64,000 bases of DNA from Vulcanimicrobiota bacterium. Its GTDB lineage: Bacteria > Vulcanimicrobiota > Vulcanimicrobiia > Vulcanimicrobiales > Vulcanimicrobiaceae. The DNA lies in assembly GCA_003135555.1 (NCBI GenBank), contig PLCF01000085.1, positions 152,589 to 216,588 of the forward strand. The letters are read 5' to 3'. The first letter of the stretch is position 1. Every line of letters starts with the position of its first letter. The notes beneath the pieces were generated by a model. That model did no database searches and was not told where the DNA came from. It was given only the letters and a program-made list of their open reading frames with translations. Positions 1 to 21,061 of the stretch are shown here, piece after piece. A program made the translations under genes and the position numbers.

Positions 1-1500
1 TTCGTGCGCGAGGTCGTCTACGCGAAGTTCTACGGCACCTCGTGGGAGCTGGACGCCTTCCTCGCTGCGGCCGTGGTTCCGGTGATCTTGTTCGGCGTTT
101 TCACCGGCGCGCTGGTCACCGCGCTGGTGCCCTTGTTCACCGACTACGTGAACACCGAGCGCGAGGACGAAGCGTGGAACCTTGCGTCGACCGTCGTCGT
201 CGTGCTGCTCGTCGTGCTCGGGCTGGGCGCGGCGGTGGGTGCTTGGCTCGCGCCGTGGTACGTGCCGCACATCTACGTGCCGCAGCACAGCCTCGACGCG
301 GCCGCCCACGTACACACCGCGGTCATCATGACGCGCTGGCTGATGCCGACGATCGTCGCGGCGAGCATCGCCGGCGTGGTCGGTGCGCTGCTCAATGCGT
401 ATCACCGGTTCGGCGCGGCGGCGCTGCAAGGCTTCGTCGCCAACGTCTGCATCATCGGCTTCGTGTGGATCGCGGAGCCGCGTTTTGGCGCGTACGCGCT
501 GGTGTTCGGTGCGCTGGCGGGCGCGTTCGTGTCCCTGCTCGCGCTGTTGCCGACGTTCTTCGCGCTGCGGCGCTTCCGGTTCGCATTCGACGTGCACCAC
601 CCCGGGCTCGTGCGGCTGATGCACGTGCTCGCGCCGATCGCGATCGGCTCGGCGGCCGGTCAGGTCGCGTTGTTTTTCGACCGTTTCTTCGCATCGCACA
701 TGACCGAAGGGACGATCGCGGGGATGAACTTCGCCGTCAAGATCGTCGGCTTTCCGCAGCAGATCTTCGTGACCGCGATCGCGACGGTGATCTTCCCGCT
801 CTTCGCCAGCCAGTTCGCGCACCACAATCGCGCGGCGATGAAGCGCAGCGTCGCCACCGGGCTGCAGATGGTGATCTTCCTGACGCTGCCGTCGGCCTGG
901 GGCCTATGCATGCTGGCCGGGCCGATCGTGCAGACGCTGTTCGAGCGCGGTGCGTTCACCCCGCAAGCCACGGTGCTGTGCGCGCAGCTGCTGCCGTTCG
1001 CCGCGGTCGGGCTGGTCGCGCTGGCGGCGAACGTCGTGCTCACGCGGTGTCTGTACGCCTGCGGGGCGGTACGGATCTCGATCGCCATCGCGGTCGCGAC
1101 GGTCGCGCTCAACGTCGCTTTGTCGCTGGCTTGGCTGCCGTCGCTGGGTGCGCGCGGGCTGCTGCTCGCCAACGCCGTCTCGCAAACGCTGCAGACCATC
1201 GCGCTCGTCGCCGTGGCGTGGCGCTCGCTGGGCGGTTTTCATCTCGGCGCGGTGTGCGTCTCGCTGCTCAAGGTGGGCGCCTGCTCCGCGGTGATGGCGT
1301 TCGCGCTGGCCGCGGTGCAGGTCACGCGCACGCCGCCCGCCCCCACCATGATCGCGCGCGTCACCAATCTGAGCGAGCACCTGCTGTTCGGCGTGTTCGT
1401 GTTCATCGCGCTCGCGCGGCTGGTCGACTCCGAAGAGCTCCACCTGGCGATCGATCTGCTGCTGCGCCGCCGTCCGCGCGATCTCGTCCCGCTGCCATGA
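1..1500 (+). CDS. murJ: MurJ/MviN-family lipid-linked glycan flippase (5' end truncated by window)
   Basis: Frame open from the window edge (FVREVVYAKFYGTSWELDAF). About 14 TM segments. MviN-like motifs 'DAFLAA..VP', 'FP.QIF..AIATVIFP', 'PIVQTLFERGAFT'. Confidence 0.9.
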   Translation, partial: FVREVVYAKFYGTSWELDAFLAAAVVPVILFGVFTGALVTALVPLFTDYVNTEREDEAWNLASTVVVVLLVVLGLGAAVGAWLAPWYVPHIYVPQHSLDAAAHVHTAVIMTRWLMPTIVAASIAGVVGALLNAYHRFGAAALQGFVANVCIIGFVWIAEPRFGAYALVFGALAGAFVSLLALLPTFFALRRFRFAFDVHHPGLVRLMHVLAPIAIGSAAGQVALFFDRFFASHMTEGTIAGMNFAVKIVGFPQQIFVTAIATVIFPLFASQFAHHNRAAMKRSVATGLQMVIFLTLPSAWGLCMLAGPIVQTLFERGAFTPQATVLCAQLLPFAAVGLVALAANVVLTRCLYACGAVRISIAIAVATVALNVALSLAWLPSLGARGLLLANAVSQTLQTIALVAVAWRSLGGFHLGAVCVSLLKVGACSAVMAFALAAVQVTRTPPAPTMIARVTNLSEHLLFGVFVFIALARLVDSEELHLAIDLLLRRRPRDLVPLP

Positions 1501-1581
1501 CAGAGTCACGCCCCGCATGACGAAGTCGCGCCCGGCATGACAGAGTCGCGCCCGGCATGACAGAGTCACGCCCCGCGTGAC
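1496..1581 (+). repeat. 20-bp tandem repeat, 4 units plus a partial (consensus CATGACAGAGTCRCGCCCSG), encoding overlapping heptapeptide mini-ORFs
   Basis: Units start at 1496, 1516, 1536 and 1556, with a partial at 1576. Each reads ATG-6 codons-TGA (MTESRPA, MTKSRPA, MTESRPA, MTESRPA) with 4-nt ATGA/GTGA overlaps. Confidence 0.95.
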
Positions 1582-2926
1582 ATTTGCACCCTGGACCGTC
1601 ACGTTGCGTCACGAGACGCACGTGCCGGTCGATGCGGCGAGCGCGCTGGTCTATCTGGCGTGCGCGGTCGGCGTCGCGTTGCTCACGCGGCGGCGTCCGG
1701 CGCTGGGCGTCGCCGCGCTGCTGGTGCTCGCCCCGTTCGACTTCGCGCGCTACGCCGGACCGACCACGATCACCACCTTGAAGGCCGGCCTGATCGGGAT
1801 GCTCGTCGCGCTGGCGTTCTCGCGGCCGGACCTGGCGGCGTTCCGGACGTTTCCGGTGCGCGCGATGCTGGCGGCGTTCGCCGCCACGCTGCTGGCGATC
1901 GCGTTGAGCGCCATCCACGCGCAGCACCTCGGCCCGGTACTGCGCGAGGCGCTCAAGGACGGTGAGTACCTGCTGCTGTTCCTGGGCGCGGTCGCCGCCT
2001 TCGCCACCGATCCCGACGACCGGCCGTTCTGGCGCACGCTCGAGCTCGCGGTCGGGCTGGTGTGCCTCTCGGCGCTCGCCGAGTACCTCGTCGGTGCGCA
2101 CAGCGGAATCTGGCTGCACGAGCGCTCCATCCCGCGCATCGCGGGCGCGCTCGAAGGGCCCAATCAACTCGCGGGCTATCTCGACGTTGCGCTGCCGGTA
2201 TTGGTCGCGCGCGCGCTGGTTCACCGCGACCGCGTGCTCGTCGCGGTGATCGGCATCGCGGCGGTCACCGACGTGTTGACGATCTCGCGGTCGGGGATCG
2301 TGGGTGCCGCGATCGGCGTCGCGGTCGTGCTGCTGGTGCTGCGGCCTTTTGGCGGCGCCGCGCTGCGCTTCGCCGCGGGCGTGGCGCTGGTGGTCGTGCT
2401 CGGGGGCGCGCTCGCGCTGCGAGCCGGCGTGCCGGCGGGATACTTCTCGCTCGATCAGGCGCCGCAGGCCGGCGATCATCTCGCCAACCGCTCGCAGCTG
2501 TGGCGGGCCGCGATCGCGTTGTGGGAAACGTCGCCCGCGGTCGGCGTCGGCGCGGGCAACTACGAGCTCGACCTGAGCGAGGTCGGGTTGACCGGCGTGC
2601 GCACCCATGCCAACAGCATCTATCTGCAGAGCCTTGCCGAGACCGGCATCGTCGGGCTGGTCGCGACGATCGCGCTGTTCGGGGTGACGATGGTGACGCT
2701 GCGGCGCAGCGGCGTCCGGCGGCCGCTGGTGGTCGGCGCGCTGGGTGCGGCCGTTGCGCTGGCGTCGCACCAGATCTTCGACGACCTATTCTTTTTTCCG
2801 AAGGTCGCGTCGGCGTACTGGCTGGTGGTCGGCGTCGCCGTCGCGGAGGTCGCCGCCCGGCGGTTGTTCGAGCGCCGCCGCGCGGCCGCGTACGTCGTGG
2901 CGCCGGCGCCGGCCGGCGCGCCGTGA
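1577..2926 (+). CDS. O-antigen ligase/polymerase-like membrane protein (Wzy_C/WaaL family)
   Basis: Polytopic. Motifs 'RIAGALEGPNQLAGYL', 'TISRSG', 'R..LW..A..LW..SP..GVG.GNY', 'HANSIYLQ.LAETGIVG'. Confidence 0.85.
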   Translation: MTFAPWTVTLRHETHVPVDAASALVYLACAVGVALLTRRRPALGVAALLVLAPFDFARYAGPTTITTLKAGLIGMLVALAFSRPDLAAFRTFPVRAMLAAFAATLLAIALSAIHAQHLGPVLREALKDGEYLLLFLGAVAAFATDPDDRPFWRTLELAVGLVCLSALAEYLVGAHSGIWLHERSIPRIAGALEGPNQLAGYLDVALPVLVARALVHRDRVLVAVIGIAAVTDVLTISRSGIVGAAIGVAVVLLVLRPFGGAALRFAAGVALVVVLGGALALRAGVPAGYFSLDQAPQAGDHLANRSQLWRAAIALWETSPAVGVGAGNYELDLSEVGLTGVRTHANSIYLQSLAETGIVGLVATIALFGVTMVTLRRSGVRRPLVVGALGAAVALASHQIFDDLFFFPKVASAYWLVVGVAVAEVAARRLFERRRAAAYVVAPAPAGAP

Positions 2927-5853
2927 ACAGCACCGGACGTCAGCGCGTCGCGCTGGTCGCACCGTTCTTCGGACGCGACTTGCGCGGCCGCAAGGAGCGC
3001 TTCGCGTTCGCGTACGCGACGCATCTCGCGCTCGAAGGCGTCGCGATCGAGGTGTTCACCACCACCACCACGCCCGATGCGCCCGATGCGAACTTCTTTG
3101 TGGCCGGAACCGACCACACCGAGCCGTTTCCGGTGCACCGCTTTCGCGTCAGCGCGCCGGATCGGGTCGCCTTCGAGGAAGCGTTGCTGGCGGTGCGCGG
3201 CTCCGGCATCACGCTCGAGGACCGCAGCGGCGCGCTGCTCGACGAGCGGCTGCGCAGCCCCGAGCTGATAGCCCACGTCCGCGCGTCGGCCGACCGGTAC
3301 GACGCGTTTCTGTTCCTCGACCTCACCGTGCCCACCACGGTCTACGCGCTCATCGACGTCGCCGAGCGCGGGCTGTTGGTGCCGCTGCTCGACGACGAAC
3401 CCGCGGCGCGGCTGCCGGCGGTCGCCGCCGCGGTCGCCCGGGCGCGCATGATCCTGTGCACCACCGAAGCCGAAGCGCTGCTCGTCGCCGAGCTGTACGG
3501 CCCCGCGACGCGCACGCGCACGCGCATCATCGGGCTGGGCGCCGACGTGGTGCCGCGCCAGGACTTGCGGCGCGACCGCGTCGATCGGGTCACGCACGGC
3601 CGGCCGTACGTCCTGGCGGTCGGCGGCGATCCGCTCGAGACCGCCGAGCTGCGCCGCAGCGGCGACTCGCAGGTCGTTGCGTTGGCCGATACCGCCGAGG
3701 GCGATCGTGCCGCCTTCTTCGCGTATGCGCGCGCGGTGGCGGTCAGCGGCGCCGGGCTGTGCTTCGTACCCGAGGTCGTCGAGGCGTGGGCCTACGGCAA
3801 GCCGGTGCTGGCTTCCGAAGACGCTTCGGGCGCGGCCCTGCTCGTGCGCGAGACCGGCGGCGGGATCGTGGTGGCGCGCGGCGGCTGGGCGCAGGCGATT
3901 GCAGCACTCCCCGGCGACGCGGCGCTGGCGACGCTGGCCGCCGCGGGCGCCGCCTACGTCGCGCGGCGCGGCGGCTGGCGCCGCGTCGCGGCGCGCACGT
4001 CGGAAGCGATCGACGGCATCGGCGCGCTCGCCGACGGCCGTTCGCGCGATGCGCTCCTGGCCCACGTCGCCTACCTCTATCCGCTGGTGCAACGGCAGCG
4101 CCGCACGATCGAGGCGATGCGCGTCAGCCGCTTCTGGCGGCTGCGGGACGTCTGGTTCGACGCGCGGCGGCGCTTCGGCGTCGGTCCGGCCGAGGATCCC
4201 GTGCACGTCTCCGACGCCGATGCACGCGCCGTCGAGCTCGCGGCGCTGGGCGATCCGTACCAGTTGTTCCGCGAGCACCATCGCGTGCGCGGCGAGGACG
4301 TCGAGCGAATGCGCGCGATGGCGCGTTTCCTGCCCAAGCCGGTCAGCCTCGCGCTGGTGATCGACGCGCGCGGCCGCGGCACCGGCGGGGTCGCCACCGC
4401 GCTGCGCTCGCTGTGCGATCAGGTCTACGAGCGCTGGTCGGCGCGCGTGCTGCTCGACGATCCGGCCGAAGTTCCGGCCGACGTCGCGGCGATCGTGGCG
4501 CAGGACGAGCGCGTCACGATCGTGCCCGCGGGCGGCGATCGCTACGGCTCCTGCGACCTCGTGGGGCCGCTCGATCCGTACGACCGTCTCGAAACGCACG
4601 CGCTGTTCGAGCTGACGCTGGCGCTGCAAGACGACGCCGACGTCGTGTACTCCGACGAGGACGCCATCGACGAGCGCGAGGTCCCCGGGCAGCCGTGGTT
4701 CAAGCCGGATTGGTCGCCCGAGACCCTGCTCACACGCGATTACGTGGGCCGGCTGTGCGTGATGCGCCGCGACCTGCTCGAGCGCGTCGGCGGCGTACGC
4801 GACGTGTTCGAAAGCGCACGCTGGTACGAGGCGCTGCTGCGCGTCACCGAAGCGACGTCGCGCGTGGTGCACGTGGCGCAGGTACTCTGTCACCGCGACG
4901 CGCGCAACCGGGTCGAGAACCGCGATCTCGCGCTCGCCGTGGAGGTCGCGCTGCGGCGCCGCGGCGAGGAGGCCGAGCTGCAGCTCGTCGAGTCGGGCGT
5001 CGAGGTGCGCTTCGTTACCGCCGGCGAACGCGTGTGCGTCATCATCCCGACCCGCGATCGCAGCGATCTGCTGGGCCCGTGCATCGCATCGGTCTTCGGC
5101 CGCACGACGTACCGCAACTTCGAGCTGCTCGTAGTCGACAACGGCAGCCGCGAAGCGGCGACGCTAGAGCTGTTCGCGCACTGGGAGCGCCGCGAGCCCA
5201 CCCGCTTCCGCGTGCTGCGCGACCCGGCTCCCTTCAACTACTCGCGGCTCAACAACGAGGCGGCGCGCGCCGCCGACGCGGCGTTCCTGCTGCTGCTCAA
5301 CAACGATACCGAAGTGATCGCACCGGATTGGATCGACGCAATGCTCGGCCAGGCGCGCCGCGCGCAGGTCGGCGCGGTGGGCGCGCTGTTGCTGTATCCC
5401 GACGGCACGGTACAGCACAGCGGCGTCGTGCTCGGCATCCTGGGGCTGGCCGGCCACGCGCACCGCTACTTGCCCGGAAACGGCCCGGGGTACCACGGTG
5501 CCCTCGAGCTCGACACGAACTATTTGGCCTTGACCGGGGCCTGTCTCATGGTCGAGAAGCGCAAGTACCTCGAGGTCGGCGGACTCGACGAGACGCTGGC
5601 GGTTTCGTACAACGACGTCGACCTGTGCCTCAAGCTGCGCCAGGCCGGCTACCGCAATGTCGTCGTCCCGCGCGCGCGGCTGTACCACTACGAGTCCAAG
5701 AGCCGCGGCGGCGACGATACGCCGGCCAAGGTCGCGCGGGCGATGGAGGAAGTGAGCACGATCCGCCGGCGCTGGCCGCAGTTCGCCGCGCGCGATCCGT
5801 ACTACAACCAGAACCTCACCGTCGACTCCGAAGATTTCGGGCTGCGCCTGTGA
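2923..5853 (+). CDS. Multidomain glycosyltransferase (degenerate GT4-like N-terminus plus two GT2 domains)
   Basis: GTG overlaps the upstream TGA. GT4-like 'VEAWAYGKPV'. GT2 motifs 'VYSDED', 'FKPDWSPE', 'VIIPTRD', 'LLVVDNGS', 'LLNNDTE', 'YNDVDLCL', 'YHYESKSRG'. Confidence 0.85.
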   Translation: MNSTGRQRVALVAPFFGRDLRGRKERFAFAYATHLALEGVAIEVFTTTTTPDAPDANFFVAGTDHTEPFPVHRFRVSAPDRVAFEEALLAVRGSGITLEDRSGALLDERLRSPELIAHVRASADRYDAFLFLDLTVPTTVYALIDVAERGLLVPLLDDEPAARLPAVAAAVARARMILCTTEAEALLVAELYGPATRTRTRIIGLGADVVPRQDLRRDRVDRVTHGRPYVLAVGGDPLETAELRRSGDSQVVALADTAEGDRAAFFAYARAVAVSGAGLCFVPEVVEAWAYGKPVLASEDASGAALLVRETGGGIVVARGGWAQAIAALPGDAALATLAAAGAAYVARRGGWRRVAARTSEAIDGIGALADGRSRDALLAHVAYLYPLVQRQRRTIEAMRVSRFWRLRDVWFDARRRFGVGPAEDPVHVSDADARAVELAALGDPYQLFREHHRVRGEDVERMRAMARFLPKPVSLALVIDARGRGTGGVATALRSLCDQVYERWSARVLLDDPAEVPADVAAIVAQDERVTIVPAGGDRYGSCDLVGPLDPYDRLETHALFELTLALQDDADVVYSDEDAIDEREVPGQPWFKPDWSPETLLTRDYVGRLCVMRRDLLERVGGVRDVFESARWYEALLRVTEATSRVVHVAQVLCHRDARNRVENRDLALAVEVALRRRGEEAELQLVESGVEVRFVTAGERVCVIIPTRDRSDLLGPCIASVFGRTTYRNFELLVVDNGSREAATLELFAHWERREPTRFRVLRDPAPFNYSRLNNEAARAADAAFLLLLNNDTEVIAPDWIDAMLGQARRAQVGAVGALLLYPDGTVQHSGVVLGILGLAGHAHRYLPGNGPGYHGALELDTNYLALTGACLMVEKRKYLEVGGLDETLAVSYNDVDLCLKLRQAGYRNVVVPRARLYHYESKSRGGDDTPAKVARAMEEVSTIRRRWPQFAARDPYYNQNLTVDSEDFGLRL

Positions 5854-7130
5854 CCGGGATCGCCGCCGAACCGGGGGCGCCGCGCCGCACCGGGGTCGCC
5901 GCGCACGCCGGGATCACTTTCGTCGGGCTGATGACCGCGAACGTGCTGGGCTACGTCTTTTACGCGCTGGTGAGCCGCACCGTCGGGGTCGAAGCGTACG
6001 GAACGTTTTCGTCGCTCGTCGCGATCGTGCTCATCTTGAGCGCACCCGCGCAGATCGCGCAGATGGTCGTCGCGAAGCTGGCCACCGACTTGACCTTCGA
6101 TCCCGACCGGCTGGCGGGGCTGGTGCGGGCGATCGATCGCGTGACGCTGACGGTGGCGGCGGTCGGCGGCGCGGCGTTGATCGCGGTCTCGGTCCCGCTG
6201 GCGCGCTTTCTGCACCTCGCGGATCCGCTGCTGGTCACCTTCGCCGGGCTTTCGCTGTGCGGCGCGCTCGCGTTGCCGTTCCTGCGCGGCGTGCTGCAGG
6301 GGACCTCGCGGTTTCGCGCCTTTGCGCTCTCCAACGTCGCCGAAACCGCGGCGAAAGCGATCTTTGCGCCGGCGTTGGCGCTCGCCGCCGGGGTGCGCGG
6401 GGCGGTCGCCGGGATGGCGCTGGGGTACGCGCTCGCCGCGGTCTACACGTTCGTCGCGGCGGTCCCGCACCGCCGCGGCACCCCCAGCACGTTCTCGCTG
6501 CGCACCGTGGCGCGAACGTCCGCGTCGGTCGCCGTCGCGGTGGTGTGCATCAACGTGCTGTTGTTGTACGACGTCGTGCTGGCCAAACGGTACCTCGACG
6601 CGCACACCGCCGGGCTCTACGGCGCCGCCGCGCTGGCCGCCCGGGCGCTCTACGCGGTCCTCGCGTTCGTGCCGACGGTGCTCTTGCCGCAGGCGGCGGT
6701 GCGCGCGGCCCGCCGCGAGCGCACGCGCTGGCTCTTTCTCCAAGCGTTCGGCGTCGCGGCGGCGATCGCCGCCGCGGCGATCGGCTTCTACGCGCTGTTT
6801 CCGGAGTTCGTCGTCGTCGCGGTCGCCGGGCGCAGCTTCGCGAGCGGGGCGCCGTTCTTGGTGCCGTACGTGTACGCGATCGCGGCCGCGGCGCTGGCCA
6901 ACGTCGTCGCGACCTACAACGTCGCGCGCGGCCGGATGGCCTTCGTCGTCCCGCTCGCGTGCGTGCTGGCCGGCGAGATCGCCAGCATCGTGATCCGCCA
7001 CCGCGGTCCGGGCGATCTGCTGCAGACCATCGTCGTCGGACACACCCTCGCGCTGCTCGCGACGGCGACGTCGTTGGGCGGCGCGAGGCCGCCGGGGCCC
7101 GAAGCCGAACTGGGAACCGCCACACCATGA
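5850..7130 (+). CDS. Wzx/PST-family oligosaccharide flippase
   Basis: GTGA overlap with the upstream gene. About 12 TM segments. Motifs 'SRTVGVEAYGTFSSL', 'RGVLQG', 'DVVLAKRYL...AGLYGAA'. Confidence 0.75.
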   Translation: MTGIAAEPGAPRRTGVAAHAGITFVGLMTANVLGYVFYALVSRTVGVEAYGTFSSLVAIVLILSAPAQIAQMVVAKLATDLTFDPDRLAGLVRAIDRVTLTVAAVGGAALIAVSVPLARFLHLADPLLVTFAGLSLCGALALPFLRGVLQGTSRFRAFALSNVAETAAKAIFAPALALAAGVRGAVAGMALGYALAAVYTFVAAVPHRRGTPSTFSLRTVARTSASVAVAVVCINVLLLYDVVLAKRYLDAHTAGLYGAAALAARALYAVLAFVPTVLLPQAAVRAARRERTRWLFLQAFGVAAAIAAAAIGFYALFPEFVVVAVAGRSFASGAPFLVPYVYAIAAAALANVVATYNVARGRMAFVVPLACVLAGEIASIVIRHRGPGDLLQTIVVGHTLALLATATSLGGARPPGPEAELGTATP

Positions 7131-15404: not shown

Positions 15405-16199
15405 ATGCTGTCGATCGTCATCCCGGCGCACAACGAGGAAGAGCACGTTGCGGACACCGTGACCCAGATCGCGCGGCGCTTGGCGGCGGAAGACGTGCCG
15501 TTCGAAATCGTCGTGGTCGACGATCATTCCGCCGATGGGACGGCCGCGGCGGTCGCCCGCGCCGCCGCCGCCTGGCCCACCGTGCGCTGCGTGCCGAACG
15601 TGCGCAGCCAGGGCTTCGGCAACGCGATCCAGACCGGGCTCGAGGCGTTTCGCGGCGATGCGGCCTGCATCGTGATGGCCGACGCTTCGGACGATCCGGG
15701 CGATATCGTCGCCTACTGGCGCGCGATCGAGCGCGGCTACGACTGCGCCTTCGGCACCCGGTTCACGCGCGCCGCGCGCGTGGTCGAGTACCCGCTCCCC
15801 AAGCTGCTGCTCAACCGGGCCGCGAACGCCTTCATCGCCGCGTTGTTCGGGATCCGCTACAACGACGTGACCAACGCGTTCAAGTGCTATCGCCGCGAGG
15901 TGATCGCGGGCGTCGCGCCGATCCTGTCGCACCACTTCAACATCACCGTCGAGCTGCCGCTCAAAGCGATCGTGCGCGGGTACTCTTGGACCGTGATCCC
16001 GACGAACTGGTACAACCGCAGGCACGGCGTTTCGAAGTTCCGGATCAAGGAGATGGGGAGCCGCTACCTGTTCATCGTGCTGTACGCGCTCATCGAGAAG
16101 TGGCTCTCGCGGGGCGACTACCGCGCGCCGGCCAGGGACGGTGGGCGCCCGCCCGAAGGGACCCTGGTCGCGCCGCGCTCGAAGGGGTCGACGCCATGA
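15405..16199 (+). CDS. GT2 glycosyltransferase, DPM-synthase-like (polyprenyl-phosphate glycosyltransferase)
   Basis: 'IVIPAHNEE', 'VVDDHSADGT', 'MADASDDP', 'GTRF', 'DVTNAFKCYR'. Confidence 0.85.
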   Translation: MLSIVIPAHNEEEHVADTVTQIARRLAAEDVPFEIVVVDDHSADGTAAAVARAAAAWPTVRCVPNVRSQGFGNAIQTGLEAFRGDAACIVMADASDDPGDIVAYWRAIERGYDCAFGTRFTRAARVVEYPLPKLLLNRAANAFIAALFGIRYNDVTNAFKCYRREVIAGVAPILSHHFNITVELPLKAIVRGYSWTVIPTNWYNRRHGVSKFRIKEMGSRYLFIVLYALIEKWLSRGDYRAPARDGGRPPEGTLVAPRSKGSTP

Positions 16200-19192: not shown

Positions 19193-21061
19193 ATGGAGAG
19201 CAAGTCGTACGCCGCGCTGCCGCCTGACAAGCTTGCCGCCCCCGACCCGAACGCCTCGTACGCGAGGATTCGCGAGATGGTCGGGTCGGGCAAGCGGGTC
19301 CTCGACGTGGGCTGCGGGCCCGGCAACCTCGCGGCGGTCCTGCACCAGGCGGGGAACGCCGTGGTGGGAATCGACATCGACGAGGGCGGCTTGGCGGCCG
19401 CCCAGCATGCGTGCGAACGCACGATCAAAGCCGACCTCGACCACGTCGAGCTCGACGAGATCGTCGGCGAGGACCGCTTCGACGTCGTCGTGTTCGCCGA
19501 CGTGCTCGAGCACTTGCGCAACCCCGCGCGGCTGCTCGGCTCCAGCCGGCGCATCATGCGCGAGGGCGGCTACGCGGTCGTCTCGATCCCCAACGTGGCG
19601 CACGGCGCGGTGCGTTTGGCGCTCTTGCGCGGCCGCTTCGAGTACCAGCAGCTGGGGATCCTCGACGACTCGCACCTGCGGTTCTACACGCGCGAGTCGG
19701 TGCTGAAACTCTTGTCGGAGAGCGGCTTCATCGCGACCCGCGTGGAGCGCACCACGGCGTCCGTGTTCGAAAGCTCGGATCTCGTGCCGTTCGTGCGGCG
19801 CGACGACTTCGATCTCGCGGTCATCGCCGAGATCATGCGCGACCAGGACGCCGAGACGCTGCAATTCGTCGTACGGGCCGCGCCGCTGGCCGAAGTCGCG
19901 GCGCTCGAAGTGCTCACGGCCGAGATCACCAGCCTCGAGCAAACGGTGCGCACGTTGCGTGCCGAGCTCGCGCAGGCCCGTGACGGGGCGGGGAAAGCGC
20001 GCTTCGAGGGGCAAACGCCGCGCATCAACGGCAGCAACGGTTCGCGCGCGCTGGCCGAGCGCCTCGCGGAGGTCGAACAACACTACCAACACGCCGTCGA
20101 GCTCAGCGAGGCGTCGCGCAGGGAACGCGACGAAGCACTCGCGGCTCGCGACGCCGCAATCGCGGCTCGCGACGAAGCACTCGCCGCTTCCGAGCGAGCG
20201 CGCGACGATCTCGCTCGGCTCGATGCCGACCTCGTCGAGGCGGAGCAGGCGCTCGTGCAGGTCGCGGAGCTGCGTGCGCAGTTGGCCGAGCGCGACGACG
20301 ATCGGGAGATCGCCGCGCAGGCGCGCGCGGAGCTCGAGACCGCTCGCGCCGAGCTGGCCGATCTCAACGCCGTGGCCGAGTCCTCAACGGCCGCCGTCGA
20401 GGAGCTGCGCGCGGGCCGTGCCGCCGCGGTCGGCGCGATCGAACATCTGCGCACCGAGCTGTTTCGCGTGCAACGGATCGCCGACGGGCTCGTCGCGGAG
20501 CGCGAGGCCGCGCTGGCGCGCAGCGAAGCCGCCGCCGCGGAGCTGGCGCGCAAGACCGCCGCAAGCGACGACGCCGAGGCGAACCTGCGCGCGGTGCGGG
20601 CGCTGCTCTCCCTGGTCGAGCAGGAGCGCGATGCGGCGCGCGCCGAGCGGGACCGCACGATCGCCCGCCTGTCGAGCGAACCCGCGGCGCTGCGCAAACG
20701 CGCGGCCACCCTGGAGAATCTGCTCGCCGTCGAGCAGACGACGCGCCAGGATGTCGAGGCGGCTTCCGAGCGTATCGCCGCCGTGGCCCGAAGCCGGGCG
20801 AAGGACGCGCGCGAGCGCGAGCTGAGCCGGCTGCGCGCGCGTTCGGTGCTCGTCGAGGTCGAGCTGCGGTTGGCGCTCCTGCAGTCCCCGCCGCCGCCTG
20901 CGGTCAGCGTGCCGCGGCTGGTGGGAGTACGCTGGTCGGCCGATACCATGCGGGCGGCGAGCGTTACGCGACGGGTTGCGACGATGGAGCGGGCGGAGCC
21001 GCCGCCCCGGTCGCGATTCCGCGCGCGTCTGCAGCGGTTGCGGCGGCTCTTTACGGGATGA
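19193..21061 (+). CDS. Class I SAM methyltransferase with a long C-terminal coiled coil (WbdD-like terminator candidate)
   Basis: 'VLDVGCGPG', 'FADVLEHL', 'SIPNVAH', 'GILDDSHLRFYT', then more than 300 aa of A/E/R-rich heptads. Confidence 0.8.
   Translation: MESKSYAALPPDKLAAPDPNASYARIREMVGSGKRVLDVGCGPGNLAAVLHQAGNAVVGIDIDEGGLAAAQHACERTIKADLDHVELDEIVGEDRFDVVVFADVLEHLRNPARLLGSSRRIMREGGYAVVSIPNVAHGAVRLALLRGRFEYQQLGILDDSHLRFYTRESVLKLLSESGFIATRVERTTASVFESSDLVPFVRRDDFDLAVIAEIMRDQDAETLQFVVRAAPLAEVAALEVLTAEITSLEQTVRTLRAELAQARDGAGKARFEGQTPRINGSNGSRALAERLAEVEQHYQHAVELSEASRRERDEALAARDAAIAARDEALAASERARDDLARLDADLVEAEQALVQVAELRAQLAERDDDREIAAQARAELETARAELADLNAVAESSTAAVEELRAGRAAAVGAIEHLRTELFRVQRIADGLVAEREAALARSEAAAAELARKTAASDDAEANLRAVRALLSLVEQERDAARAERDRTIARLSSEPAALRKRAATLENLLAVEQTTRQDVEAASERIAAVARSRAKDARERELSRLRARSVLVEVELRLALLQSPPPPAVSVPRLVGVRWSADTMRAASVTRRVATMERAEPPPRSRFRARLQRLRRLFTG
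20126..20188 (+). repeat. In-frame 21-bp tandem repeat x3 (RDEALAA/RDAAIAA/RDEALAA)
   Basis: cgcgacgaagcactcgcggct / cgcgacgccgcaatcgcggct / cgcgacgaagcactcgccgct. Confidence 0.85.

Follow-up and report, generated by a model that had tools for sequence, protein, structure and literature searches.

Why should the gap between two genes be filled, to the nucleotide, by tandem copies of a 20-nucleotide (nt) sequence, each of which reads as a miniature gene whose stop codon overlaps the next start codon? The question is raised by a 64,000-nt stretch of DNA from a Vulcanimicrobiota bacterium (assembly GCA_003135555.1, contig PLCF01000085.1, positions 152,589 to 216,588 of the forward strand; hereafter the window). 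Here, four head-to-tail units at 1497–1576 occupy the exact interval between the stop codon of murJ, a gene of the lipid II flippase family, and the GTG start codon of a gene for an O-antigen-ligase-family membrane protein (the ligase gene). A preliminary description of the window presented the array as a link between these two genes. Our analysis corrects this picture: the array belongs to a dispersed repeat family, restricted to one genus, that also sits at housekeeping junctions.

We put at about 0.65 the probability that the array is a variable, junction-riding 20-nt repeat that keeps the flanking genes translationally coupled by termination-reinitiation together with hairpin opening. A ribosome ending murJ at UGA would restart on the overlapping AUG and read seven codons, melting the hairpin over the next start as it goes; it would then stop on the next UGA and restart, the cycle repeating until the ligase start is reached. 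The arm GUCACGC of each unit would pair with GC-RUGAY at the next start, and the ligase GUG itself would be locked in a 7-bp hairpin. Such a relay would retain the coupling that a plain spacer of 20–80 nt would abolish; a spacer of about 20 nt almost abolishes termination-reinitiation coupling, according to the available part of one study (PMC10666635). Coupling across 4-nt stop/start overlaps (−4 overlaps) is described as widespread, with reinitiation and RNA-unfolding models both debated, in the accessible sections of a review (PMC12548453). The repeat unit would satisfy both models at once.

Direct reading of the sequence bore out the coordinates, miniature open reading frames (mini-ORFs) and peptides first given for the four-unit array. 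Each unit begins with ATGA and lacks an in-frame stop, and so reads as ATG plus six codons followed by a TGA that overlaps the next start by 4 nt. The murJ gene is read in frame 1, its stop (TGA, 1498–1500) is overlapped by the ATG at 1497, and its last codons have a G+C content at third positions (GC3) of 0.91. At the other end, 26 genomes of the genus share the ligase start and the N-terminus M[IT]F[HA]PWTVTLRHE; in eight of them the GTG directly overlaps the murJ stop. Tandem Repeats Finder reported the array at 1496–1582 (period 20, 4.3 copies, 86% matches, score 125), and unit 1 recurs three times in the window at up to three mismatches, against none in 100 shuffles. Any 20-nt ATGA-initial unit without an in-frame stop yields a relay automatically, hence the four steps; the four mini-ORFs are not four independent observations. 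More generally, each copy is a seven-codon ORF with its stop over the next start because the unit is 3n+2 nt long and begins with RTGA.

Unit architecture, hairpin and junction phase

The family has the form RTGAC-GGA-GTCACGC-nnn-GC. In the 59 sense units of 20 nt, of which 53 are distinct, positions 2–5 (TGAC), 9–15 (GTCACGC) and 19–20 (GC) are 85–100% conserved, and positions 6–8 and 16–18 vary freely; the unit is thus made up of a pair of 7-nt arms, GC-RTGAC and GTCACGC, with two loops of 3 nt, the first of which is purine-rich and usually GGA, giving GGAG. Variation had initially been described as largely synonymous in the mini-ORF frame. This holds for the window array and fails family-wide, where the variable positions are simply the two loops. 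Conservation of the peptide was considered and rejected: the 59 units encode 40 different peptides, whose only fixed residues, Thr2 and Ser4, are dictated by the arms.

The hairpin proposed earlier over the ligase GTG is present in the minimum-free-energy fold, at about −9.3 kcal/mol, and its 3′ arm contains both the last mini-ORF stop and the ligase start codon. The surrounding segment (1470–1640) folds better than its shuffled versions (z −4.54, with none of 200 shuffles as good). In the predicted fold GTG1577 has an unpaired probability of 0.00, compared with 0.34–0.66 for the four mini-ORF ATGs, and this predicted sequestration points to ligase translation depending on translation from upstream. 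A consensus unit followed by a GTGAT gene start gives −8.0 kcal/mol, and the equivalent hairpins over internal AUGs, which carry a C·A mismatch, −3.5 kcal/mol.

Covariation across the family supports the same helix. In an alignment of 52 of the 53 distinct units (the non-family 20-mer of locus L030 was excluded), positions 9–15 pair with positions 19–20 plus the next start (RUGAY) in 92.0% of cases, against 88.6 ± 0.5% in shuffles. Three pairs show 10 compensatory cells, in which both sides have changed, a figure reached in none of 500 shuffles; slid registers score far worse. One unit of the window's own genome, on contig C81, carries the next-start helix with CA...TG in place of GC...GC. Since related sequences can outscore shuffles without any structure, this is support rather than proof. 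A second candidate helix, within the unit (RTGAC-nnn-GTCAY), was rejected: at 76.4% paired against 79.1% in shuffles and with a single compensatory cell, it has no support beyond its 4–5 invariant pairs.

The array lies between two ORFs, with the upstream TGA over its first start and its last TGA over the downstream start, at all 13 foreign loci and at 7 of 8 loci of the own genome; the flanking ORFs have GC3 values of 0.83–0.99, those upstream 0.83–0.95. For four junction types we fetched the orthologous junctions from the genus (up to 44 genomes) and walked the chain from each upstream stop. Rows without a flank were dropped (4 of 30 for murJ–ligase, 0 of 30 for rmlC-like–aldo-keto reductase, 3 of 30 for tmk-like–holB and 1 of 30 for glgB–glgX), and a chain reaching an ORF of 280–670 aa was counted as intact, that ORF being the gene itself. 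The counts include genome G032 (rows L011, L064, L101 and L128), which is flagged unpublished and on which no conclusion rests. At murJ–ligase, 26 usable junctions comprised 8 direct RTGA overlaps, 17 intact relays and one variant; at rmlC-like–aldo-keto reductase, all 30 were either direct (21) or intact relays (9); at tmk-like–holB, 27 comprised 17 direct, 9 relays and one unclear case (L118); and at glgB–glgX, all 29 were direct (18) or relays (11). Junctions that carry a unit in some genomes are thus direct RTGA overlaps in relatives without one, and an unbroken −4/−4 relay is present in 46 of the 48 insert-bearing junctions. The exceptions are L118 and the murJ–ligase variant L030, where the gene start lies one codon further upstream, creating an ATGCTGA overlap.

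Inserts of other than unit length are the more telling cases. Eight were found, of 5 nt (L027), 8 nt (L024 and L012, with differing sequences), 17 nt (L106 and L108, differing in sequence and clade, with the arm lost and the relay kept), 29 nt (L050), 59 nt (L010) and 101 nt (L130, of unrelated sequence). All are 3n+2 nt long and all keep both overlaps. In L010, a 1-nt deletion has abolished the middle unit's stop and start, so that three units now read as a single ORF of 20 codons. For independent events, the chance of eight 3n+2 inserts is (1/3)^8, about 1.5e-4. Stop-free 3n inserts are read as N-terminal extensions and escape the walk, so the cautious comparison is with 3n+1 alone, (1/2)^8 or about 0.004. 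No 3n insert is visible among the direct junction strings of the genus; the unit on contig C25 of the own genome is such a case. There (L056, G000:C25:40640-41650, minus strand), a 21-nt unit is read in frame as the N-terminus MTESRSRV of an ABC-ATPase-like protein, its ATG overlapping the upstream stop.

Start codons provide a second line of evidence. Genes begin with GTG in 43 of 45 cases behind arrays and in 57 of 64 cases at direct junctions, whereas ATG opens 18 of 19 internal units and 27 of 48 first units. Plain duplication of a GTG unit would place GTG inside the array. Taken with the 46 unbroken relays and the eight odd inserts, the 3n+2 geometry, suggested at the outset to preserve the stop/start overlaps at any copy number, is real and appears to be under constraint.

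Mini-ORFs at stop/start junctions also occur outside the family. A genome-wide walk from 3,822 stops of long, high-GC3 ORFs found 570 direct overlaps and 78 stops that reach a gene via mini-ORFs, figures for which there is no clean null. At ten junctions of the own genome, a 5-nt duplication has produced RTGAN followed by RTGA, a two-codon relay ORF (for example C9:1089, C11:45578, C35:3719, C43:934 and C58:81024). About 45 further non-family mini-ORFs of up to 15 codons bridge an upstream stop to a gene start, again counted without a null model.

Strain alleles, dispersal and spread

Contigs from four peat-metagenome runs, belonging to four studies, were compared over 1200–1900. Run X1, which may be the source sample, yielded an independent contig with the four-unit array and no differences over 1472–1900. 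In runs X5 and X6, a 359-nt contig (depth 46.8 and 30.4, respectively) omits exactly 60 nt (1495 to 1556) and is otherwise identical, and in run X7 an 850-nt contig omits 20 nt at 1549 and has six other differences. Alleles of four, one and three units therefore exist in near-identical peat strains, and between species of the genus the number ranges from zero to four. The comparison of copy number across reads and relatives that had been called for thus revealed variation by whole units at both levels. Copy-number change is not by itself evidence of selection, because whole-unit slippage keeps the relay automatically.

The own assembly (3.57 Mb, 98 contigs, 84% complete) gave 28 matches to a degenerate whole-assembly search at up to three mismatches, against two for the reversed control, and 11 matches to the strict pattern RTGACNGNGTCAYNNNNNNNRTGA. 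The strict pattern had 51 matches in 17 of 44 genus genomes and its reversed control none in any genome. In a sample of the phylum, 26 of 401 genomes had a match (11 of 32 in the own genus; one match for the control), and those outside the genus were single and had unrelated tails. An exact scan with RTGACGGAGTCACGCNNCGCRTGA over one genome for each of 185,579 species returned 13 stretches, all in metagenome-assembled genomes (MAGs) titled Vulcanimicrobiota, Candidatus Eremiobacteraeota or Candidatus Elarobacter sp., with three records titled Candidatus Elarobacter. As far as searched, the family is therefore confined to one Eremiobacterota genus.

Besides murJ–ligase, the unit recurs at seven or more gene junctions of the own genome, and seven co-directional junction types carry units there (Table 1). 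These types include the housekeeping pairs tmk-like–holB, glgB–glgX and rmlC-like–aldo-keto reductase, which speaks for a generic junction-riding element and not for a dedicated surface-polysaccharide rheostat. The one own-locus exception, on contig C68 (L058:123-190), is flanked by convergent genes and consists of a tandem array of three 22-nt units that share the family's arms (GTGACGRGGTCACGCCCGAGGC). Its first GTG is overlapped by the stop lying upstream, and within it falls the end of a minus-strand ORF of 196 aa that by eye resembles TetR. A 22-nt period departs from the 3n+2 rule, and a relay is not required in such a setting.

Table 1 Features of the window array and further unit-bearing loci of the same genome. 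Contig numbers (C) refer to the own assembly; neighbour names at these loci were read from translations, not from Pfam.
Feature	Position	Strand	Description or basis
murJ, 3′ part (cut by window start)	1..1500	+	Pfam MurJ PF03023, E 3.1e-69
Unit 1	1497..1516	+	mini-ORF 1497-1520, MTESRPA; ATG overlaps murJ stop
Unit 2	1517..1536	+	mini-ORF 1517-1540, MTKSRPA
Unit 3	1537..1556	+	mini-ORF 1537-1560, MTESRPA
Unit 4	1557..1576	+	mini-ORF 1557-1580, MTESRPA; TGA overlaps ligase GTG
Predicted RNA hairpin	1565..1581	+	GUCACGC-CCC-GCGUGAC, 7 bp; minimum-free-energy fold
Wzy_C/O-antigen-ligase-family gene, 449 aa, GTG start	1577..2926	+	Pfam Wzy_C PF04932, E 3.7e-17
Direct GTGA stop/start overlap, ligase gene to next gene	2923..2926	+	sequence; unit-free
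3 units	C11:31823		glgB-like to glgX-like
1 unit	C11:29635		before glgB-like gene
2 units	C19:23643		rmlC-like to aldo-keto reductase-like
2 units	C66:44346		tmk-like to holB-like
1 unit	C81:45653		before small gene, MoaD/ThiS-like by eye
1 unit (21-nt version)	C25:41145		in-frame N-terminus of ABC ATPase-like gene

Downstream of the ligase gene, the overlap at 2923–2926 (CCGTGAAC) is a junction of the same type as the unit-occupied sites, empty here, and shows that the operon is otherwise joined by −4 overlaps. The gene that follows has a weak glycosyltransferase-like match (Glyco_trans_1_4, 21.5 bits, below the 27-bit cut-off). Scans of 1200–1900 found no sigma-70-like promoter site and a single terminator-like site, inside murJ and at chance level; Rfam gave no match at the gathering score in the window, L058 or L059. 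Tandem Repeats Finder listed further repeats in the window at 20126-20188 (21 nt, 3.0 copies, score 98), 16134-16186 (26 nt, 2.2 copies) and 5853-5904 (19 nt, 2.2–2.8 copies). Arrays of this kind confuse gene callers and short-read assemblers, and are possible strain markers for Elarobacter populations.

Orientation and target preference bear on how the units spread. Because of its dyad symmetry, the unit places RTGA every 20 nt on the other strand too, so that the relay would stay open even in units inserted the other way round. At all seven co-directional junction types, however, it is the mRNA strand that carries the purine-rich loop (GGA, GGG, GAA or AGA in 46 of 59 units). At six of the seven the gene start is GTGATC, already present in unit-free relatives, whereas such starts make up only 9.0% of 567 direct −4 junctions of the own genome. 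This preference points to a sequence-dependent route to new junctions; copying between junctions that share CC...GTGATCG is one guess at that route. The Y1 transposase family (PF01797) had no match in the own genome, at 84% completeness; in the control, 6 of the 14 named genomes were matched.

On a quick tree of flank sequences (27 genomes), gains and losses are indistinguishable for want of an outgroup. Presence and absence require at least 2, 3, 4 and 5 changes at the four junctions, and copy-number states at least 8, 3, 6 and 6, the eight belonging to murJ–ligase, the junction with the widest spread of units on the tree.

Three observations concern related sequences. In unit-free genomes, ligase codons 6–11 (window 1592-1609; L037 and L038) read ATGACGGTCACGCTGCGT, a sequence that differs from the unit consensus ATGACGGAGTCACGCTGCG only by two additional bases; the 5′ end of the ligase gene itself may be where the family originated. 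A dispersed intergenic repeat of about 55 nt (TGTCACCC-TGACGGAGTCACG-TGCGCGTGAG-CCCCGTCGAAGGG...) has 12 copies in the own genome, none in 43 other genus genomes, and no Rfam match. It occurs in L059 (G000:C16:15900-17700) near 350, 1330 and 1430, and also on C37, C40, C43, C45, C69, C80 and C98. It has a 13-nt core (TGACGGAGTCACG) in common with the junction unit, and looks like a small mobile element that is related to this unit and has expanded recently. Finally, G000:C27:17044-17115 holds two 24-nt tandem palindromic units (GGGTGACCGCGTCACCCGCGCAGC) in an intergenic position just upstream of a minus-strand gene, which has a canonical AAGGAGG 8 nt before its ATG. This repeat resembles an operator and is a member of another family, one that shares the core GTGAC-N3-GTCAC.

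Weighing the relay against other explanations

Several points weigh against a relay. Very short ORFs can lose ribosomes, so the chain may be leaky. Whole-unit gain or loss preserves the relay automatically, so that changes of copy number alone show no selection, and the evidence for constraint amounts to some eight odd inserts and start-codon counts from related, non-independent genomes, in which counts overstate independence. A genome-wide test of spacer phase is confounded by start calling, covariation cannot separate an RNA hairpin from a DNA palindrome, and none of the 17 runs listed with the stretch is an RNA run.

The ribosome-binding motif adds a further difficulty. GGAG has decayed in the window array, where loops read AGA and GAA and the arms of two units GTCG. 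Where intact, it is 11 nt upstream of the following start, as far out as the enrichment seen in the own genome extends. A survey based on crude start calls found GGAG enriched 4–11 nt upstream of starts, with the repeat family itself possibly feeding the 10–11-nt bins, for which reason we do not rely on this survey. The 16S 3′ end, with its anti-Shine-Dalgarno sequence, is absent from the own assembly, at its 84% completeness. A ribosome-binding role for the first loop of the window array is doubtful, and GGAG was given little weight here.

Among the other explanations, the one that survives best would add to the relay mechanism without replacing it. The number of units might be selected to set the amount of ligase per MurJ, each restart passing on only a fraction of the ribosomes, giving graded variation among strains in a surface-polysaccharide enzyme. 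We regard this adaptive rheostat, the reading favoured in the preliminary description, as a possibility, but an unlikely one. The near-identical strains with one, three or four units, the zero to four units among species, the at least eight copy-number changes at murJ–ligase and the envelope-related nature of the gene are in its favour. However, units vary equally at tmk-like–holB, glgB–glgX and rmlC-like–aldo-keto reductase, where surface variation is not at stake, and slippage alone explains the variation.

A more speculative proposal concerns mobility. The unit might be a self-spreading 'coupling cassette', the smallest known mobile repeat, which targets CC/GTGATC overlaps through template switching at microhomology-sharing junctions or through an unrecognised enzyme, was perhaps born from the ligase 5′ codons, and whose copy number is a heritable, graded setting of the ratio at which cistrons are translated. 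We consider it rather improbable as a whole. How a 20-nt sequence would come to new junctions with so strong a preference for GTGATC is a question for work on the mobility of small repeats.

Less likely again is an array of RNA hairpins for mRNA stability or processing, comparable to repetitive extragenic palindromic sequences (REPs) and bacterial interspersed mosaic elements (BIMEs), with incidental mini-ORFs. The arm-and-loop unit, the covarying hairpin and the z of −4.54 (0 of 200 shuffles) fit such a role, which nevertheless does not predict the 3n+2 length of the odd inserts, a start on every stop, the enrichment of ATG at internal starts, the constant orientation or the restriction to RTGA overlaps. 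Moreover, both 17-nt derivatives have lost an arm and still keep the relay.

Tandem operators, an alternative raised in the preliminary description, seem very improbable. At such sites (TGAC-N3-GTCA palindromes) a DNA-binding protein would act within the operon as a roadblock or regulator. They would account for the GTGAC-N3-GTCAC dyad of the unit and the 20-bp spacing of about two helical turns, and a different 24-nt palindromic repeat with the same core does occupy a promoter region of the own genome, on C27. The within-unit palindrome, however, is no better paired than in shuffles and is usually broken by the A of ATG, which weakly contradicts the idea; the junctions come from unrelated pathways, the rules of phase and orientation would be unexpected, and 1200–1900 has no sigma-70-like promoter. 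Although short tandem repeats are often mis-assembled and the MAG is an 84% complete set of 98 contigs, an assembly artefact or neutral one-off duplication can be dismissed, given the identical four-unit array on the independent X1 contig, the one- and three-unit alleles with otherwise matching flanks in three other studies, and the presence of the unit at other junctions and in 16 other genomes.

Comparison with known systems

Our literature searches found no paper pairing Eremiobacterota with a tandem repeat, nothing comparable on repetitive elements with coupling and mini-ORFs, and, by title, no Elarobacter paper with repeats. The relay array nonetheless shares features with several described systems. 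Contingency loci are phase-variable simple sequence repeats in surface-polysaccharide genes. Like them, the array is a slippage-prone repeat beside an envelope gene with strain-level length variation; unlike them, its units are part of neither protein frame and the chain holds at any copy number, with no frame shift and no off-switch. REPs lie outside genes, in either orientation and without regard to reading frame, and are associated with Y1 transposases. The junction unit resembles REPs and BIMEs in being short, palindromic, dispersed and sometimes clustered, a likeness to which the related repeat of about 55 nt in intergenic DNA of the own genome adds, and differs in being sense-only, phased and placed at overlaps, with the Y1 transposase not found in the own genome at its 84% completeness.

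In synthetic two-cistron (bicistronic design) leaders, a short leader ORF includes the ribosome-binding motif for the cistron that follows and ends over the start of that cistron, so that its translation opens local structure. The short leader ORF and the overlapping stop are common to both systems. The array, by contrast, is natural, tandem and dispersed, and in the window it does not conserve GGAG.

Termination-reinitiation coupling at ATGA/GTGA overlaps was reportedly described by Huber et al. in 2019, and is also treated in the available part of Huber et al. 2023. Every joint of the arrays is a classic −4 overlap of RTGA form, and the unit-free junctions are plain −4 overlaps. What differs is that up to five consecutive joints run through non-functional seven-codon ORFs, in numbers that are polymorphic. 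If the relay works as proposed, the arrays are a natural allelic series of 0, 1, 2, 3 and 4 restart steps at several operon junctions, and a test bed for the efficiency of termination-reinitiation per step and for hairpin opening versus ribosome hand-over. Which of these two dominates is called unsettled in the accessible sections of the 2025 review (PMC12548453). For the repeat as such, the nearest precedent lies in another phylum.

The closest described system, by analogy, is the family of mycobacterial interspersed repetitive units (MIRUs), which are said to have been described by Supply et al. in 1997. According to the parts of the sources available, MIRUs are 40–100 bp long, with 41 loci in H37Rv, 12 of them polymorphic (PMC2734929); they insert at start codons with a −4-coupled ORF (PMC12548453), and promoter activity has been reported for the MIRU spacer of senX3-regX3 (PMC4213456). 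As far as these texts go, both families are dispersed, form tandem units between operon genes with strain-variable copy number, and occupy many loci of which only some are polymorphic; the tolerance of both is put down to the preserved coupling. In its functional traits the junction unit is MIRU-like, with co-directional sense placement, a −4-coupled small ORF, several loci and strain-variable copies. It is set apart by size and host: it is 20 nt and not 40–100 bp, all its carriers are Eremiobacterota, and its sequence appears unrelated. Further differences are its architecture, with two arms of 7 nt and two loops of 3 nt, and its pairing with the start codon that follows; it occurs only on RTGA overlaps, preferring GTGATC (six of seven junction types against a 9% background); and no promoter-like site was seen at the array (1200–1900), in contrast to the activity reported for the senX3-regX3 spacer in the available text. 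The finding shows that the MIRU way of life is no mycobacterial oddity: an uncultured phylum of soil and peat has arrived at it independently, with a unit not half as long as the smallest MIRU.

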